A stretch of 64,000 bases of DNA, taken from Candidatus Omnitrophota bacterium (lineage in GTDB: Bacteria; Omnitrophota; Gorgyraeia; Gygaellales; Profunditerraquicolaceae). Position 1 is the first letter of the stretch, and each line of letters starts with the position of its first letter. Shown here one piece after another: positions 36,630 to 60,750 of the stretch. The DNA lies in the NCBI GenBank assembly GCA_025453395.1, contig JALOQK010000004.1:51563-115562 (forward strand). Reading direction: 5' to 3'. The notes beneath the pieces were generated by a model. That model was not told the origin of the DNA. It did no database searches and was given only the letters and a program-made list of their open reading frames with translations. A program made the position numbers and the translations under genes.

Positions 36630-37973
36630 TTAAGCTAAATCCGGAAGGTCTTTAAGAGATTTTCTTATTTCCGCTTTAGGGTAGGCGTAGTTTTTAAGTT
36701 CTCCGGCTAAGAATTTATCATAAGAGGATAAATCCAAGAAACCATGCCCGCTGAAATTAAAAACAATACACCCCTTCTTTTTTCTTTTGGCAATATCTAT
36801 TACCGCCTTTACGGCATGGGCGGTTTCCGGAGCAGGGACAATACCTTCAGCGCGCGCGAAATCACAAGCTGCCTCAAACACCTCTAATTGATTATAGGAA
36901 ACCGAATCAATGATCCCTTTTTCCTGCAAGGCGCTTACAATCGGAGAACAACCGTGATAACGCAAACCTCCCGCGTGAATCCCGGGAGGAATAAAGTTGT
37001 GGCCTAAGGTGAACATCTTGATAAGAGGCGTTAACCGCACTGTATCGCCATAATCATATTTATACACGCCTTTTGTCAGACTAGGACAAGCCGCCGGCTC
37101 AACCGCAACTATCTTTAAGCAGCCATCTTTCATGCATTGCTTAACAAAGGGGAAAGCAAAACCCGCAAAATTACTTCCGCCGCCCACACAAGCCACAAGA
37201 TAATCCGGCTTCTCGCCAAAAACTTTAAGTTGTTTTTTAAGCTCCAGACCTATGACAGTCTGATGCAGCATCACATGGTTTAGGACGCTTCCTAAACAAT
37301 ATTTCGTATCCTTGTCCCCGACGGCATCCTCTACCGCTTCGGATATAGCAATGCCTAAACTACCCTGGCAATGCGGATCTTTTGCCAAAACTTCCCTGCC
37401 GCTGTTAGTTGTATCCGAAGGAGAAGCCAAAACCTGCGCGCCCCAGATATGCATAAGAGACTTGCGAAAAGGTTTTTGATGAAAACTTACCTTCACCATA
37501 TATATGCGGCATTCTAAACCAAAGATATTACAGGCAAAACTCAAAGCCGCCCCCCACTGTCCGGCGCCGGTTTCCGTAGTTAAACGTTTGACCCCTTCTT
37601 TTTTATTGTAATAAACTTGGGCTACTGAAGTATTGGTCTTGTGGCTGCCGGTGGGAGACACGCTTTCATCTTTATAATAGATACGACACTTAGTCTTTAA
37701 GTGTTTTTCTAAGTTTCTGGCTCTTTTTAAAGGAGTCGGCCTCCACAAACGATAAATCTGCCGGACATCTTCCGGCACGCCAATCCATTTTTCGCAAGAC
37801 ATCTCCTGTTGTATCAAGGCATCAGGGAATATCGGGCTTAAATCATCCCTGTTTAAAGGCTTGCGTGTTTGCGGATTTATAGGAGGCGGCAGCTTAAAAG
37901 GCAAATCACTTAAAAGATTATACCAGCTGCTGGGGATATCTTTTTCGCTCAGGCTAACCCTTAGTCTGTCCAT
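36630..37973 (-). CDS. trpB: TrpB-like PLP-dependent enzyme (tryptophan synthase beta, TrpB2 type)
   Basis: 447 aa, with the long N-terminal extension and HKTN lysine motif typical of TrpB2. Confidence 0.85.
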
Positions 37974-37977
37974 ACGC

Positions 37978-38058
37978 TTATCCCAAACAAGGTTTTCTGC
38001 CTTTATTGGCTTTCTTAGAACGCCAGTTTAATTTACCTCTACGTTTACGTTTTCCCAT
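37978..38058 (-). CDS. candidate 26-aa highly basic peptide ([26 protein letters not shown]). Its stop lies 4 nt before the trpB2 ATG
   Basis: ATG preceded by GAAAGGGG, which aligns with the RBS of the doxX leader copy. A 32-aa alternative starts at 38073. It was not in the ORF track (below 60 aa). Confidence 0.25.
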
Positions 38059-38131
38059 ATCTGCCCCTTTCATAGTAATGAACACCGCCCCAGAAAGGGG
38101 CGTACTTTGCCTTCCAATAGGCAAAGGTACG
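38041..38131 (-). repeat. conserved intercistronic dual-hairpin element, copy 2 (GTACCTTTGCC-TATTGGAA-GGCAAAGTAC + GCCCCTTTCTGGGGC + GGTGTTCATTACTATGAAAGGGG)
   Basis: Near-identical hairpin, including the loop, and the GGTGTTCRYTACTRYGAARGGRG tract are shared with 28759-28838. Confidence 0.55.
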
Positions 38132-38786: not shown

Positions 38787-38809
38787 CTGCGATATTAAGA
38801 TAAACCAAT

Positions 38810-38842
38810 AAGGGCAGGAATATTATCCCGCCCTTATTTTTT
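38810..38842 (-). terminator. hairpin AAGGGCAGG-N8-CCCGCCCTT flanked by A/T runs (bidirectional terminator-like)
   Basis: Seen in the sequence between the 38864-39313 gene and the CsgG-like gene. The T-run is on the + strand and a weaker U-rich tract is on the - strand. Confidence 0.35.
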
Positions 38843-42552: not shown

Positions 42553-42556
42553 TTGT

Positions 42557-42598
42557 CAGCTATCAGCTTTCAGCTATCAGCTATCAGCTTTCAGCGCA
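42557..42598. repeat. tandem heptamer repeat (TCAGCTW)x6, ending 4 nt before the lpxL start
   Basis: Seen directly: TCAGCTA TCAGCTT TCAGCTA TCAGCTA TCAGCTT TCAGCGC. Confidence 0.8.
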
Positions 42599-45711: not shown

Positions 45712-45746
45712 TCAGCTATCAGCTGTCAGCCTTCAGCTATCAGCTA
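45712..45746. repeat. tandem heptamer repeat TCAGCTA TCAGCTG TCAGCCT TCAGCTA TCAGCTA between the secA stop and the lnt RBS
   Basis: Seen directly. It is almost identical to the copy at 59416-59450. Confidence 0.8.
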
Positions 45747-48662
45747 TTTTCCACAGCACTTCTTATATTTCTTCCCCGAGCCGCAAGGACAAGGTTGGTT
45801 TCTGCCGACTTTTTCCGAAGTTGCCTGTTGCTGCGCAACCGGGGCATTTATATTACTACCTGTATCTCCGGGCGCCTGGCCTTGCTCTGGAAACCCTTCG
45901 GCATCAGGATGCAACATGCGCTGTGAACGCGCTGAGAAAACCTGTTTGAATTTTTCCTGCTGGCTCTGGGGCTGGAGTTTAAAAATAATCTCTGCCGCCT
46001 CTTCTTCAATGGTGGCAATCATTTCCGCAAACATCTCAAAGGCCTCGCGCTTATATTCAATCAAGGGGTCGCGCTGGCCATAGGCGCGAAGCCCAATCCC
46101 CTCTCTTAAACTATCCATGGCGTAAAGGTGCTCTTTCCATTTGGTATCAATAATCTGCAAGAAGACCATGCGCTCTAAATGCCTAAGCATCTTTTCGCCG
46201 ATAGCCTGCTCTTTATTATTGTAATACTCTTGGGCCTTCTCCAGTAAATAGACAGCGGCGTCTTTGGCAGATTTCTCAAAGTCTTTCTTTTCAATTTCTA
46301 TGCCCAATTTAAGCCGCATCTCATCAAATACCACCTGAAAATCACGCGCTTCCGGGTCATTCTCCGAGGCTACATAGGCATTTACCTTTTCTTCAATTAT
46401 TTTACCGGCGACATCAAGAATGCTATCTTTAAGCGAAAGCCCCTCTAAAACATCTCTTCTTTGGGCATAAATAACCTCACGCTGCTTATTCATCACATTG
46501 TCATAATCCAATAATTGCTTGCGAATTTCAAAATTATGCTGCTCCACGCGCTTTTGCGCCACCTCAATGGATCTAGTTACCCAAGGATGCTCAATAACCT
46601 GGCCCTCTTCCAAACCTAAAGCAGCCATCATGCCGCTAATCTTATCTGAACCGAACAAGCGCATCAGATTATCTTCAAGGGAAATATAAAAACGCGATGA
46701 CCCCGGGTCACCCTGCCTGGCGCAGCGGCCGCGCAGCTGATTATCAATACGCCTTGCCTCATGGCGTTCAGTAGCTAAAACATGTAAACCGTCTAAAGCA
46801 ACCACCTGCTCATGCTCTTTAAGGCAGGACTGCTTGAAATCCTGCAGGGCCTTCTTAACCTGGTCATTATAATCCGGGGCCTCTTGATCTAACTTATGCT
46901 GAATAAAACTTTTAGCTAGGAAATCCGGATTGCCCCCTAAAAGTATATCTGTGCCGCGGCCAGCCATATTTGTGGCAATGGTCACGGCTTTATAATGGCC
47001 TGCCTGCGCCACAATTTGCGCTTCTCTTTCATGATGTTTAGCATTTAAAACTTCATGTTCTATCCCGCGCATCTTTAACATCTCTGAAAGCTTTTCGGAT
47101 TTATCAATGGATACTGTCCCCACTAATACGGGCCTGCCTTTTTCATGCAATTCACAGATTTCATCTACCACTGCTTTAAATTTCTCTTTTTCCGTGCGGT
47201 AAATACAATCCGGATAATTATGACGGATCAAGGGCCGGTTGGTAGGAACATTGACCACGTCCAGCCGGTATATATCCTTGAATTCATTGGCCTCGGTAGA
47301 AGCTGTGCCGGTCATGCCGGAAAGCTTCTCATACATACGGAAGTAATTCTGAAAAGTCACTGTAGCTAAAGTTTGGTTTTCCCGCTCAATCTTAATGCCT
47401 TCTTTTGCCTCTACCGCCTGGTGCAGGCCATCGGACCAGCGCCTTCCGGGCATCATTCTTCCGGTAAACTCATCCACAATGATAACTTCGCCGTCCTTAA
47501 CCACATAATCCACGTCGCGCTGGAAGAATTCTTTAGCGCGCAAGGCCTGAATAGTATGGTGCCTGAATTCCATAGTATCAATATTATGCAGGCTTTCTAC
47601 CCCCCAAAGTTTTGCCGCGCGGGATTCTCCGTCTTCAGTCAAAGATATCGTCCTTGCTTTCTCGTCGGCGAGATATTCATACCCTTTGGTTAAATCAATC
47701 CCTTTGTGCTTGGCATTAATCTCATCTTTCTCAAGCACTCTTCTGCCCTTTAAAGAATCAGCGATATGCCGGGCAGTATAATATTTATCGGTTGCCTCTT
47801 CAGCCGGGCCGGAAATAATTAGCGGGGTGCGCGCTTCATCAATCAAGATTGAATCCACTTCATCCACAATCGCAAAATAAAAACCTCTCTGCACAAGATC
47901 TTCAAGGTTGTATTTCATATTATCGCGCAGATAATCAAAACCAAACTCGTTGTTGGTGCCATAGGTAATATCGCAATTATAAGCGGCCTGTCTTTCCTGG
48001 TCATCCATTTCATGCTGAATAACCCCCACGGTTAAACCTAAGAATTCAAACACCGGCCCCATCCATTCCCGGTCGCGTCTGGCTAAATAATCATTGACCG
48101 TAACAATATGCACGCCCTTGCCTAAAAGCGCGTTTAAATAAGCTGCCAATGTTGCTACAAGGGTCTTCCCTTCTCCGGTGGACATTTCAGAGATTTTCCC
48201 CTCGTGCAAAATAACCCCGCCGGCTATCTGCACATCAAAATGCCTCAAACCGATGGCGCGCTTAGAGGCTTCTCTTACTACGGCAAAACTTTCTGCCAAG
48301 ATATCTTCAAAGATTTTATTGCGGGTGGATTTTATTTTCTCTTTGATGCGGTCCTTCTCCTCGGGTATAGCTACTTCAAAAAGCTCTGCCTCTAACTGTT
48401 CTATCTGAGAGGCGCATTCCCTGGCCTTATCGGAAATGTGTTGCCTGAAATAATCTGTTTTCTCTTTTAACTGCGCATCGCTTAAACCAGAAATTGTTTC
48501 TTCAAAGGAATTTACTTTATAGACTATCCCCGCCAAATCCGCCATTTTGCTCATTGATGGAGATGGCATATCCGGATGCAAAACAATATTGACTCCGGGA
48601 AAATTCTTTACAATGCCGCCCTGCTTGCTTTTTAACACCTGCTGTTTAATCCATCCGAACAT
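45744..48662 (-). CDS. secA: preprotein translocase ATPase SecA
   Basis: DEAD-motor motifs, the preprotein cross-linking domain and the C-terminal zinc-binding tail CPCGSGKKYKKCCG. 972 aa. Confidence 0.95.
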   Translation of the reverse strand: MFGWIKQQVLKSKQGGIVKNFPGVNIVLHPDMPSPSMSKMADLAGIVYKVNSFEETISGLSDAQLKEKTDYFRQHISDKARECASQIEQLEAELFEVAIPEEKDRIKEKIKSTRNKIFEDILAESFAVVREASKRAIGLRHFDVQIAGGVILHEGKISEMSTGEGKTLVATLAAYLNALLGKGVHIVTVNDYLARRDREWMGPVFEFLGLTVGVIQHEMDDQERQAAYNCDITYGTNNEFGFDYLRDNMKYNLEDLVQRGFYFAIVDEVDSILIDEARTPLIISGPAEEATDKYYTARHIADSLKGRRVLEKDEINAKHKGIDLTKGYEYLADEKARTISLTEDGESRAAKLWGVESLHNIDTMEFRHHTIQALRAKEFFQRDVDYVVKDGEVIIVDEFTGRMMPGRRWSDGLHQAVEAKEGIKIERENQTLATVTFQNYFRMYEKLSGMTGTASTEANEFKDIYRLDVVNVPTNRPLIRHNYPDCIYRTEKEKFKAVVDEICELHEKGRPVLVGTVSIDKSEKLSEMLKMRGIEHEVLNAKHHEREAQIVAQAGHYKAVTIATNMAGRGTDILLGGNPDFLAKSFIQHKLDQEAPDYNDQVKKALQDFKQSCLKEHEQVVALDGLHVLATERHEARRIDNQLRGRCARQGDPGSSRFYISLEDNLMRLFGSDKISGMMAALGLEEGQVIEHPWVTRSIEVAQKRVEQHNFEIRKQLLDYDNVMNKQREVIYAQRRDVLEGLSLKDSILDVAGKIIEEKVNAYVASENDPEARDFQVVFDEMRLKLGIEIEKKDFEKSAKDAAVYLLEKAQEYYNNKEQAIGEKMLRHLERMVFLQIIDTKWKEHLYAMDSLREGIGLRAYGQRDPLIEYKREAFEMFAEMIATIEEEAAEIIFKLQPQSQQEKFKQVFSARSQRMLHPDAEGFPEQGQAPGDTGSNINAPVAQQQATSEKVGRNQPCPCGSGKKYKKCCGK

Positions 48663-57644: not shown

Positions 57645-58961
57645 TTATAATTTATCGCGGTTATCCACTACGCGTTTGGCTTTTCCTTCAAATTCCGGCA
57701 ATACCCCGGGCTCATGAAGCTCTATCACTGGGCTTATAATAATAGAAGCCCGCAATTCATTCTTGATCTTCTCTTTGATCGTGTCCAATTGAGCAACATC
57801 TCCGGTAAAAAGCTTAGAGTATATTTCTACCTTAACAATAAGTTTATCCAGGGTGCCTTCTTTTTCCAGATGGATCTGGTAATTATTCCCCACTTCCGGG
57901 ATGCGCATGATTATTTCTTCAATCTGCGAAGGATACATATTCACGCCGTTAACGATAAGCATATCATCGGTTCTTCCGGTAATCCGCGAGATCCTGCGGT
58001 GCGTGCGCTTACATTTACAGGCACCCTTATAGACAAAAGCCAAATCTCTTGTGCGATAGCGCAATAACGGAGTTGCGCGGCGGGTAAGATGGGTTAAAAC
58101 AATTTCTCCTTCTTTTTCTTCAGGCAGGATATTGCCTGTCTTAGGGTCAATTACCTCCAGGATATAGCTATCTTCCCACAAATGCATTCCGTTTTTATAG
58201 ACACACTCAAAACTTACCCCCGGGCCGTTTAGCTCGCTTAGGCCGTAAGAATTATAGACATCAATATCATAAAGAGCCTCTATCTTTTTGCGCGTATTAT
58301 CTGAATACGGCTCTGCCCCGACATAGGCCTTCTTCAGGCAAAGGTCTTTCTTGCTGAATCCGCATTCTTCCAGCTTTGAATATATATGCAAAAGATAACT
58401 CGGAGTGGCATGCACGACGGTGGCCTTAAAATCTTTCATCAAAGAAAGTTGACGCTTGGTATTTCCTGCCGAAGATGGAATAACTGTTAACCCCGCGCGC
58501 TCTGCCCCATAATGAAGCCCCAGGCCTCCGGTAAAAAGCCCATAGGTCATCATATTCTGGAAAATATCATTCTTGTCGGCGCCGGTTGCGATAATACAGC
58601 GGGCCACCAATTCCGCCCAGTGCTTGATATCTTCTTGGGTATGGTAAATTACCGTGGGGGTGCCGGTAGTCCCGCTTGAAGTATGCACCCTGACCACATC
58701 CTGCATATTTACCGCCAGCAGGCCATTGGGGTAACACTGCCTTAAATCATCTTTACTGGTAAAGGGGATGCGTTTTAAGTCATCAAGCGATTTTATGTCG
58801 GATGCCGAACGGATGCCGGCTTTTTTCAGGCGGTGGTTGTAAAAAGCAGTATGCATCGCGTAATGCACAGACTGCTTAAGATGCGCCAGCTGCATCTTTT
58901 TTAATTCTTGCGCGCTTAAGGTTTCGGTATTCTTATCCCAATAAAATATTTCTTTAGGCAT
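57645..58961 (-). CDS. paaK: phenylacetate--CoA ligase family (PaaK-like aryl/acyl-CoA ligase)
   Basis: Adenylate-forming motifs SSGTTGTPT and YGLSE. 438 aa. Confidence 0.85.
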   Translation of the reverse strand: MPKEIFYWDKNTETLSAQELKKMQLAHLKQSVHYAMHTAFYNHRLKKAGIRSASDIKSLDDLKRIPFTSKDDLRQCYPNGLLAVNMQDVVRVHTSSGTTGTPTVIYHTQEDIKHWAELVARCIIATGADKNDIFQNMMTYGLFTGGLGLHYGAERAGLTVIPSSAGNTKRQLSLMKDFKATVVHATPSYLLHIYSKLEECGFSKKDLCLKKAYVGAEPYSDNTRKKIEALYDIDVYNSYGLSELNGPGVSFECVYKNGMHLWEDSYILEVIDPKTGNILPEEKEGEIVLTHLTRRATPLLRYRTRDLAFVYKGACKCKRTHRRISRITGRTDDMLIVNGVNMYPSQIEEIIMRIPEVGNNYQIHLEKEGTLDKLIVKVEIYSKLFTGDVAQLDTIKEKIKNELRASIIISPVIELHEPGVLPEFEGKAKRVVDNRDKL

Positions 58962-59396: not shown

Positions 59397-59415
59397 CTCT
59401 TTCCCCTTTCATTTT

Positions 59416-59450
59416 ATCAGCTTTCAGCTGTCAGCCTTCAGCTATCAGCT
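59416..59450. repeat. tandem heptamer repeat TCAGCTT TCAGCTG TCAGCCT TCAGCTA TCAGCTA between the paaK stop and the ACT-protein RBS
   Basis: Seen directly. Confidence 0.8.
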
Positions 59451-60750
59451 AAAGAATTCTTTTATCTATAACTCTTTTGGCTTTTCCTTCGCTTCGCTCA
59501 AGGACCTTAGGCTCAACAAGCTTAACTTTCACAAAAACACCAAGCACGGATTCAATTTCTTTCTTAATCTTGTCGGAAAGCGCGCTCAAACTCTTCATTT
59601 CATCAGAAAAGAATTTATCTTCCACTTCCACCAAAACTTCCAGCTCATCCATGTCGCCGACTTTTCGATCTACCACAAGCTGATAATGCGGTTTAGTCCC
59701 TTCAATGCCCAGAAGAACGTGCTCAATCTGCGACGGGAAGACATTGATCCCGCGCACAATGATCATATCATCTGTGCGGCCTTTGATCTTGCTTATGCGC
59801 GGGGATGTCCTCCCGCAACGGCATTTTTCATACTTTATAGAAACAATATCCCGCGTGCGATAACGCAATAAAGGAAGCCCTTCTTTGATAAGCGTAGTAA
59901 TAACTAATTCCCCGAATTCACCTTCTTTTACCTCTTTGCCGGTTTTGGGGTTTATTATTTCGGGATAAAAAACATCCGAAAAAATATGTAAACCCTTTTT
60001 ATGCTGGCATTCCTGGGCCACTCCCGGCCCGATGACTTCAGATAAGCCGTAAACATCCGTAGCAAGAATATTCCATGTTTTTTCTATTTCGCCTCTCATG
60101 GTCTCGCTCCACGGCTCTGCCCCAAAGACCCCCACTTCCCAACTGCTTTCTTTAGGGTTTAATCCCATTTCCCGGGCTTCTTCTGACATATACAAACAAT
60201 AACTGGGCGTGCAGGCTAAAATCCTGGGCTTAAAATCATTCATGATCTTTAACTGCCTTTTGGTTTGCCCCGATGAAGCAGGGATTACCGTTAACCCCAT
60301 CTCAAGAGCCCCATAATGAAAACCTAATCCTCCGGTAAACAAACCATAGCCATAGGCAATCTGGATAATGTCCCCCGGAACAGCTCCAGCGCAGCCTAAG
60401 ACGCGCGCCATCACTTCTGACCAAAGCCCTAAATCTTCTTTGGTGTAACCAACTACCGTGGGATTGCCGGTCGTCCCGCTTGAGACATGGATCTCGGCTA
60501 TGTCTTTAAGAGGGCTTGAAAAAAGATTGAAAGGGTAACTATCGCGCATGTCTTCTTTGGTGGTAAAAGGAATCTTTTTCAAATCACGCAAATCCTGTAT
60601 ATCCGAAGGGCGCACTCCAGCTGCTTCTAATTTCTTGCGGTAGAGTTTGTTATTATCCCAGATATACTGCACTTTTTTGCGCAAGCGTTCAGACTGCAGA
60701 ATTTGCATTTCTCCAGCAGACATACATTCCATATTCTCATTCCAAATCAT
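59449..60750 (-). CDS. paaK: phenylacetate--CoA ligase family, second paralog
   Basis: SSGTTGNPT and YGLSE motifs. The start is taken at MIWNENMECMS, abutting the iorB stop. Confidence 0.85.
   Translation of the reverse strand: MIWNENMECMSAGEMQILQSERLRKKVQYIWDNNKLYRKKLEAAGVRPSDIQDLRDLKKIPFTTKEDMRDSYPFNLFSSPLKDIAEIHVSSGTTGNPTVVGYTKEDLGLWSEVMARVLGCAGAVPGDIIQIAYGYGLFTGGLGFHYGALEMGLTVIPASSGQTKRQLKIMNDFKPRILACTPSYCLYMSEEAREMGLNPKESSWEVGVFGAEPWSETMRGEIEKTWNILATDVYGLSEVIGPGVAQECQHKKGLHIFSDVFYPEIINPKTGKEVKEGEFGELVITTLIKEGLPLLRYRTRDIVSIKYEKCRCGRTSPRISKIKGRTDDMIIVRGINVFPSQIEHVLLGIEGTKPHYQLVVDRKVGDMDELEVLVEVEDKFFSDEMKSLSALSDKIKKEIESVLGVFVKVKLVEPKVLERSEGKAKRVIDKRIL

Follow-up and report, generated by a model that had tools for sequence, protein, structure and literature searches.

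Short hairpin-forming repeats, present in multiple copies between genes, are known from several bacteria, as the BOX elements of Streptococcus pneumoniae, the REP/BIME and ERIC sequences of enterobacteria and the Correia/NEMIS elements of Neisseria; these repeats vary in the number of their modules, are co-transcribed with their neighbours and can alter mRNA stability or expression. In 5' untranslated regions (5'-UTR), the stem-loops of ompA and the Bacillus STAB-SD are stabiliser or translation-enhancer features, while the target leaders of CsrA/RsmA and the CsrB/RsmZ-type RNAs present GGA in hairpin loops, several per RNA. The ribosomal protein bL37 is seated in the 50S subunit, in a 23S rRNA pocket of H39-H42, H72 and H89. 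It has been treated as an actinobacterial or mycobacterial protein (PMC5876184, PMC13392368), and small peptides arose independently in the same ribosomal cleft, namely the Coxiella CLaSP (PMC13392368) and an extension of Borrelia uL30 (PMC10618245). Here we analysed a 64-kb stretch of a Candidatus Omnitrophota genome (contig JALOQK010000004.1), hereafter the window, in which a leader made of RNA hairpins precedes a 26-codon open reading frame (ORF), the small ORF, located between a CsgG-like lipoprotein gene and trpB2; all the features of this finding sit on the minus strand. The best overall explanation, to which we assign a probability of about 0.55, is that one copy of a modular RNA leader stands here in front of a genuine, phylum-wide small gene, which probably encodes a bL37-type protein.

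An earlier note on this DNA had described a ribosome-binding site (RBS) equivalent followed by a 26-residue ORF whose stop codon lies four nucleotides (nt) before the trpB2 ATG, and these coordinates were confirmed: GCGT separates the stop from the ATG at 37973. Whether the peptide is a real small protein, a leader peptide or an artefact had been left undecided in that note, which proposed a comparison at the codon level. Homology searches, with the 48-residue TTG-extended frame of the small ORF as query, retrieved metagenomic 'hypothetical proteins' with unrelated N-terminal extensions, all ending in the small-ORF peptide, and a back-translated scan of one genome per species gave at least 496 confirmed matches, nearly all of them in metagenome-assembled genomes (MAGs) of Candidatus Omnitrophota. 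Across 74 loci, 69 distinct DNA sequences encode 11 peptides, the pairwise differences per site at the first, second and third codon position being 0.084, 0.032 and 0.425, respectively, and codon differences are synonymous 10.8 times as often as non-synonymous; this is the signature of purifying selection, in a set of loci that was retrieved by peptide similarity and thus favours conserved copies. The comparison speaks strongly for a real small protein. A collection of about 15 billion proteins does not contain the exact 26-residue peptide, so the small gene is unannotated, and the JGI gene calls on the source contig skip it; in the literature, nothing relevant to the peptide sequence was found. 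To judge from these sequence comparisons, the 26-codon ORF is a genuine, phylum-wide and unannotated gene.

The surroundings of this gene are conserved on one side. In 71 of the 78 loci compared, the upstream gene is homologous to the window lipoprotein, and the small-ORF ATG is usually found 1-20 nt past the lipoprotein stop (at most 20 nt in about 45 of 74 loci), without the hairpin leader. Downstream, we observed a ZIP transporter (24 loci), an EF-Tu-domain-2-like protein of 84-86 amino acids (aa) (20), a ThiI-like protein (11), a STAS-like protein (6) or trpB2 (6, including the window). Since the downstream gene varies and the upstream gene is conserved, the peptide belongs with the lipoprotein gene, and trpB2, which the earlier note had taken as its partner, is a lineage-specific neighbour. 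The ZIP-family metal transporter, 10 nt behind the small gene in 24 of the 78 genomes, is reminiscent of zinc-related ribosomal protein loci, although the peptide itself lacks a zinc-binding motif.

We consider it likely that the small protein is a divergent bL37-type protein, as its sequence suggests. The mycobacterial bL37 sequence (M. smegmatis MAKRGRKKRDRKHSKANHGKRPNA, PDB 5O60 chain 3) was verified against the PDB, and aligning the Omnitrophota alignment to bL37 with hhalign gave a probability of 86% (E = 5e-6), with 23 of 24 residues colinear and 43% identity; only 10 of 20,000 composition-preserving shuffles of bL37 scored as well against the family profile. An exhaustive profile search yielded 55 representatives of a wider family with the motif [KR]L.WRSKKANHG[RK]KP, and eight of ten family variants matched only the two NCBIfam models for bL37, the actinobacterial NF047428 and the planctomycete NF047429, always below cutoff; the best scores with these models were those of the P0031 core, 21.9 and 19.9 bits (E = 1.7e-4 and 6.4e-4). 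Therefore, by the curated cutoffs the proteins do not belong to bL37, while they share with it the length, the basic character, the C-terminal SKANHG[KR][KR]P and colinearity over the full length. Omnitrophota are part of the PVC (Planctomycetes-Verrucomicrobia-Chlamydiae) group, for which a planctomycete bL37 model exists; a literature search for bL37 in Planctomycetes returned nothing relevant. In the PDB, phmmer with the peptide found nothing and a profile search gave chance-level matches only. Among the latter kind of similarity, the KKANHGARPC of the Tetrahymena mitoribosomal protein mL102 (PDB 6z1p chain AQ) fits the family motif and is not significant (E = 0.5). We also considered the ribosomal protein bTHX, which resembles the small protein in being a basic peptide of 26-27 aa with an MGK start and RRGK[IL]xWR, and rejected it: the Omnitrophota peptides match neither TIGR04560 nor PF17070, for which the T. 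thermophilus THX control scored 54-67 bits, and the shuffle test with THX was not significant (714 of 20,000; P about 0.04-0.08).

A different reading of the same gene accepts that the protein is real and takes it as non-ribosomal, for example as a basic partner peptide of the coupled CsgG-like lipoprotein, the likeness to bL37 being a convergence of short peptides rich in lysine and arginine. The retention of the gene pair in 71 of 78 loci, the gap being typically 1-5 nt, the bL37 matches below threshold and the independent evolution of small peptides in the same cleft (PMC13392368, PMC10618245) are all in line with it. We nevertheless regard it as rather unlikely, as it has to face a full-length and colinear hhalign alignment, the fact that the bL37 models are the sole families matched by eight of ten variants, and an extreme phylum-wide conservation that is typical of ribosome-bound peptides.

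Turning to the leader, we were able to identify in front of the small ORF three hairpins, A, C and B, and a terminal Shine-Dalgarno-like (SD) site, which is the ribosome-binding site of the unit (Table 1). Hairpin A begins 5 nt past the lipoprotein stop and is formed by an outer stem of 3 bp (GUA/UAC), a bulged C at 38127, an inner stem of 7 bp (CUUUGCC/GGCAAAG) and an 8-nt loop (UAUUGGAA). This copy folds at a lower energy than its shuffles (z = -2.6; 2 of 200 shuffles equally stable). The first hairpin (28 nt) is repeated with one difference at 28837-28810, in front of doxX; the pattern has two matches, against 0.00 expected (100 shuffles). The earlier note had indeed described a 'dual-hairpin' leader repeated at doxX; the repeat holds and the number of hairpins is three, not two. 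The span it gave to the leader (38041-38131) includes the first 18 nt of the small ORF, and its count of two copies has to be raised, since a third, diverged copy precedes the LemA gene. As that note had proposed, the doxX ATG (28755) is in the equivalent position, 6 nt past the SD site GAAGGAGG, and the cassette carries its own RBS, as the repeated module ends in its own SD site. The stem of hairpin B is compensated between the two copies (UUCGC-UACU-GCGAA before doxX versus UUCAU-UACU-AUGAA before the small ORF). In the shorter LemA copy, two base pairs of hairpin A (CUUGGCA/UGCCAAG, loop UAAAUGAG) are changed in a compensatory manner with respect to the other two copies, hairpin C reads GCCC-UUGCU-GGGC, and the SD site is GAAGGAGG, as in the doxX copy. 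Each of the three window copies is located between the stop of a co-directional gene and an SD site with its ATG. Given that the stems differ by compensatory changes between copies of one genome, we rejected the reading of the palindrome as a DNA operator.

Table 1. Coordinates in the window of the leader copies and of the genes around them
Feature	Position	Strand	Remarks
Leader before the small ORF, whole	38130-38064	minus	three hairpins and terminal ribosome-binding site
Hairpin A	38130-38102	minus	GTACCTTTGCC-TATTGGAA-GGCAAAGTAC; from sequence and fold
Hairpin C	38101-38087	minus	GCCCC-UUUCU-GGGGC; GC-rich stem
Hairpin B	38082-38069	minus	UUCAU-UACU-AUGAA; conserved GGUGUU on its 5' side; 3' arm enters the SD site
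SD-like site	38071-38064	minus	GAAAGGGG; 5 nt before the small-ORF ATG
Small ORF	38058-37978	minus	ATG 38058-38056; 26 codons; TAA 37980-37978; phylum-conserved, unannotated
CsgG-like lipoprotein gene	38786-38136	minus	Pfam CsgG, 28.5 bits; stop TAA 38138-38136
trpB2, TrpB-like pyridoxal-phosphate enzyme	37973-36630	minus	NF009057, 702 bits
Second leader copy, before doxX	28837-28756	minus	repeat; covariance model 19.5 bits, E = 0.046
Hairpin A of the doxX copy	28837-28809	minus	
Middle hairpin of the doxX copy	28808-28795	minus	
Hairpin B of the doxX copy	28780-28767	minus	
SD site of the doxX copy	28769-28762	minus	
Third leader copy, before the LemA gene	12596-12547	minus	shorter and diverged; hairpin A, hairpin C and SD site (12554-12547); LemA ATG 12541

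No further copies were found in the 10 kb beyond the window start. At the doxX locus, an independent assembly (L094, a Logan contig of SRR12684589, positions 1-80) begins inside hairpin A (ACCTTTGCCTATCGG...), a break that a multi-copy repeat is expected to cause. The earlier note had suggested a mobile leader-like cassette; both this break and the absence of the leader from the same junction in most related genomes agree with a repeated, inserted module. Missing conservation at orthologous loci had been named there as an outcome contrary to its proposal; we found the ORF conserved at these loci, whereas the leader at this junction is not. Two strains, compared to see whether both carry the element, had identical intergenic regions.

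The leader forms part of a wider family. A metagenome scan for hairpin A led to nine contigs, in which it takes part, as a single module, in longer hairpin arrays running up to a start codon; the leader of a HU/IHF gene (L092), for instance, extends over about 240 nt behind a near-consensus promoter read by eye. The modules are hairpin A itself, with variable stems, the bulged C and a loop UAWNGGAW; GC-rich hairpins with UUNCU loops; and a palindrome, GUGUUYGC-UUACU-GCGAACAC, whose final copy decays into GYRAAGGAGG, i.e., the SD site. From one to about seven modules make up a leader, and nested units are present. In L086 (157-260), L087 (minus strand) and L091/L092 (6449-6525), a full A+C unit like that of the window's copy 1 is found within the loop of an A hairpin like that of the window's copy 3, an arrangement to be read as a nested insertion or else as a conserved three-way junction. 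In the labelled Omnitrophota MAGs L013, L019, L044, L052 and L067, the head of the hairpin is ACAC-C instead of GUAC-C; this variant is placed 4-7 nt upstream of the start codons of unrelated genes, and in four of these genomes (L013, L019, L044 and L067) it precedes an orthologous gene for a DUF5666-like secreted protein. Overall, the genes behind the leader are unrelated to each other (HU/IHF, EF-Tu-domain-2-like, DUF5666-like secreted protein, zinc-ribbon protein, DoxX, LemA and the small gene). Among 20 listed instances, 13 end at most 7 nt from a start codon, these being mostly the full-length model matches and the three window copies; all but one instance are co-oriented with the downstream gene. 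Sequences resembling sigma-70 promoters, identified by eye and not with a promoter tool, precede the motif in L013, L019, L044 and L092.

The pairing of the stems is conserved, while their sequence varies. In an ungapped alignment of hairpin A (the window copies and instances from other contigs; 10 other instances), 99% of the cells are paired, 7 of 10 pairs are compensated, and the covariation is 0.856 versus 0.272 in shuffled alignments (0 of 500 reach it); a MAFFT seed alignment gave 0.569 versus 0.183 (again 0 of 500), and among 19 covariance-model matches 13 of 14 pairs are compensated, with the pairs of helix 2 covarying. Slid controls gave a covariation of 0.17 or lower. Likewise, a perfect 7-bp stem flanks the loop 8-mer in 12 of its 422 occurrences, against 0.18% of random positions. 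Some copies are found at the same orthologous site in more than one genome and behave as a conserved cis-regulatory RNA would. Rfam has no family for this hairpin leader: Rfam 15 gave zero matches at the gathering threshold in the window and in eight motif-bearing loci, and chance-level matches only at E <= 10. A literature search on Omnitrophota RNA motifs also found nothing relevant. The covariation is clear, and the hairpin leader is a candidate for a structured RNA family not described before.

Our proposal is that the leader is a portable translation-initiation module, working in cis on the mRNA for the gene downstream. Its stable hairpins would insulate the translation start from whatever sequence lies upstream and from ribosomes arriving from there, and would probably protect the downstream mRNA; the 3' arm of the last hairpin, abutting the SD site 5-7 nt before the start codon, would set this site right behind a helix. 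Since loop and bulge are invariant, they may well be read by some factor. The module is found both at apparent transcript starts and at junctions within operons. Its copies appear to arise by duplication or insertion at gene junctions and, in the present locus, the module would have entered the junction of the lipoprotein gene and the small gene, a pair directly coupled in most relatives. Such a spread is supported by near-identical copies in unlinked places, by the lack of the leader at most orthologous junctions, by nested units, by an antisense copy and by the assembly break. Transposase, terminal inverted repeats and target duplications were not seen, no search aimed at a REP-associated tyrosine transposase (RAYT) having been made; since no signature of transposition was found, we speak of the element as possibly mobile. 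We deem it quite unlikely that the leader is a self-propagating portable-RBS cassette that inserts at junctions, even into its own loops, and rewires the translation of operons, serving a missed bL37 homolog in this instance.

Several observations weigh against the interpretation given here. On the side of the peptide, the relatives score 7-22 bits against cutoffs of 30 (NF047428) and 40 (NF047429), the window peptide itself matches no NCBIfam or Pfam model (NCBIfam searched to E <= 10), the similarity to bL37 resides largely in one motif, KANxG[KR][KR]P, and ribosomal protein genes are not usually coupled tightly to a lipoprotein gene. On the side of the leader, the function that we propose is read from sequence and predicted structure, and the window and the 10 kb beyond its start (about 74 kb of genome) contain just three copies. 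The loop GGA is missing from the LemA copy and from L086-L089. The instances used for covariation were partly picked for their pairing or fitted to the model, and the figures are somewhat inflated; we judge the signal to be real, since the slid controls are low and the stems diverse. One copy with 38 bits, in L013 (1565-1616, minus strand), lies between two plus-strand genes and is antisense to both, which is a better fit to a selfish repeat than to a leader; immediately 5' of this copy we noticed CCCUCCUUC, and no gene is found behind it. Finally, in the minimum-energy fold of the small-ORF copy the SD site is predicted to be paired (unpaired probability 0.01), the opposite of being presented, the 5' arm of hairpin C (CCCCUUUC) having a predicted alternative pairing with the SD site GAAAGGGG. 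In most other leader copies the SD site is predicted to be largely unpaired; the pairing with hairpin C may be incidental or may dampen expression.

Three other accounts of the leader have to be weighed against a portable initiation module. The hairpins might be selfish palindromes, similar to REP, BOX or miniature inverted-repeat transposable elements, with no dedicated function, tolerated between a stop codon and the next RBS, in which case the SD site would belong to the gene. Hairpin A, including its loop, is in fact near-identical at two unlinked loci of the window and occurs in tandem and nested in nine unrelated metagenome contigs, one copy between genes is reverse-oriented, an assembly breaks at the repeat, and the element is missing from most orthologous junctions; moreover, the junction between the lipoprotein gene and the small gene gained unrelated hairpins and heptamer repeats in other lineages. 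What makes this account unlikely is the placement and the conservation: 13 of the 20 listed instances lie at most 7 nt from a start codon and are co-oriented with it, four genomes carry the motif, with covarying stems, in front of one and the same gene, and loop and bulge are kept while the stems vary. The doxX and LemA copies share GCGAAGGAGGUA, and for this reason the SD site looks like a part of the unit; the transposase, terminal inverted repeats and target duplications of a selfish element were not seen either, within the limits of a search that was not directed at RAYT.

The conserved loops could alternatively be bound by a global post-transcriptional regulator of the CsrA/Rsm type; its dimer would dock at the loop GGA and at the SD site and block or tune the translation of many unrelated genes, leaders with multiple hairpins binding several. 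The SELEX (systematic evolution of ligands by exponential enrichment) consensus of CsrA is RUACARGGAUGU and the RsmE site is CACGGAUG; the typical loops UAUCGGAU(G), UAUAGGAU(G) and UAUUGGAA come close to these, one to four such loops are present per leader, and the SD sites GAAGGAGG contain GGA. We hold such docking to be very unlikely, since GGA is present in two of the three window copies, is replaced in the LemA copy (UAAAUGAG) and in L086-L089 (UAUUUGAA/U), and is absent from the SD site of the small-ORF copy (GAAAGGGG); tblastn searches for CsrA and Hfq in the window and all loci found none in 590 kb, a sample too small to exclude them, and the literature searched holds no link between CsrA and Omnitrophota leaders. 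We give negligible probability to a control of trpB2 by tryptophan, whether through a regulatory leader peptide encoded by the small ORF or through the leader as a riboswitch or attenuator. The ORF includes one codon for Trp, its stop lies 4 nt from the trpB2 start, and the predicted fold of its leader copy can sequester the SD site; yet a single Trp is not a run, non-trp genes stand behind the peptide in 72 of 78 loci, with its sequence kept at 92-100%, DoxX and LemA have the same leader, the module count varies between leaders, Rfam gives no match, and the sole terminator-like call, at hairpin C, has a weak T tract. The comparative data exclude a trp attenuator or riboswitch, and the conservation of the peptide before ZIP, EF-Tu-domain-2-like, ThiI-like and STAS-like genes, with trpB2 in only 6 of 78 loci, disposes of both the trpB2 leader peptide and the artefact that had been considered at the outset.

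Regarding transcription, a promoter scan found no convincing minus-strand promoter immediately upstream of the leader of the small ORF. We also considered an intrinsic terminator at hairpin C and rejected it, as the GUGUUCAUUA after the hairpin is a weak T tract and the flag raised by the scan is only marginal; the U tract is missing in the doxX and LemA copies. At 38807-38838 (minus strand), between a 149-aa ORF and the lipoprotein gene, lies a terminator-like hairpin of 13 bp with a T-rich tail, and because of it the run formed by the lipoprotein gene, the small gene and trpB2 may be a transcription unit of its own. The start of trpB2 appears sound, since the NF009057 model aligns from residue 3. 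Adjacency to trpB2 is kept only in five relatives (L037, L069 and L074-L076), with a gap of 7 nt, versus 4 nt in the window. The 4-nt gap, a weak SD site before trpB2 and the 7-nt gap of the five relatives fit termination-reinitiation, by which re-initiating ribosomes may reach the trpB2 start, i.e., the two genes may be translationally coupled.

The same five relatives carry a different hairpin (CACGGNCC...GGCCGUG, with GUACC before it) 60-75 nt upstream of the small gene. In the window, TCAGCTN heptamers occur five to six times in tandem in three arrays (42556-42595, 45712-45747 and 59415-59450), the last one just upstream of a minus-strand start codon, and in L015 the same heptamers fill the junction between the lipoprotein gene and the small gene. 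This junction, as its sequences indicate, has repeatedly acquired structured spacers, and the TCAGCTN arrays may be another type of repeated leader or spacer of the Omnitrophota. Elsewhere in the window, the segments 58504-58679 and 60308-60483 are 74-81% identical and 1804 nt apart; they probably belong to adjacent paralogous genes.

The 162-nt 'intergenic' gap before trpB2 is therefore not empty, and no leader of the trp type precedes trpB2. It contains the gene of a 26-residue protein that is 92-100% identical across hundreds of Omnitrophota genomes and missing from public protein sets. Should this protein be a bL37 homolog, a ribosomal protein taken as 'actinobacterial' would extend into the PVC superphylum, with a bearing on how small peptides filled the 23S/5S cleft near the peptidyl-transferase centre, and annotation pipelines would need a new model. 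The hairpin leader, in turn, serves many unrelated genes in a phylum that has no cultured model, and offers a handle on translation starts within operons. An unannotated, phylum-wide, bL37-like gene behind one copy of an undescribed modular hairpin leader is, in our opinion, of more interest than a leader peptide.

When compared with the systems described so far, the small protein resembles bL37 in its length (26 aa versus 24-32 aa) and extremely basic character, in the start M-[AG]-K-R-x-R and in the C-terminal SK(K)AN[HK]G[KR][KR]P[NC]; it differs in an internal GKLNWRS with an invariant Trp, which mycobacterial bL37 does not have, and it comes from another phylum, the resemblance being known from sequence alone. 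With the CsrA/RsmA target leaders, the Omnitrophota leader has in common GGA loops upstream of and at the SD site and several hairpins per leader; unlike there, GGA is not universal in the family and a cognate protein was not found in the 590 kb sampled. Similarly to the BOX, REP, ERIC and Correia repeats, it is short, hairpin-forming, modular and present in multiple copies. REP/BIME repeats are extragenic, imperfect palindromes of 20-40 nt in many copies, with a 5' GT[AG]G head, both orientations or inverted pairs and a cognate RAYT; the Omnitrophota leader contains a palindrome, of which the roughly 74 kb of genome available hold three copies, one of them at an assembly break, its head is GUAC-C or ACAC-C, all but one instance are co-oriented, and RAYT was not searched for. 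In contrast to those repeats, the leader is near-fixed in its orientation and distance to the start codon, ends in an SD site, and has a conserved loop and bulge and covarying stems, with some copies at orthologous positions. The ompA stem-loops and STAB-SD are likewise stable hairpins at or near the 5' end, directly upstream of the SD site, and serve unrelated genes, but they are features of single genes, whereas the Omnitrophota leader is a repeated family, with a conserved loop and modular arrays.

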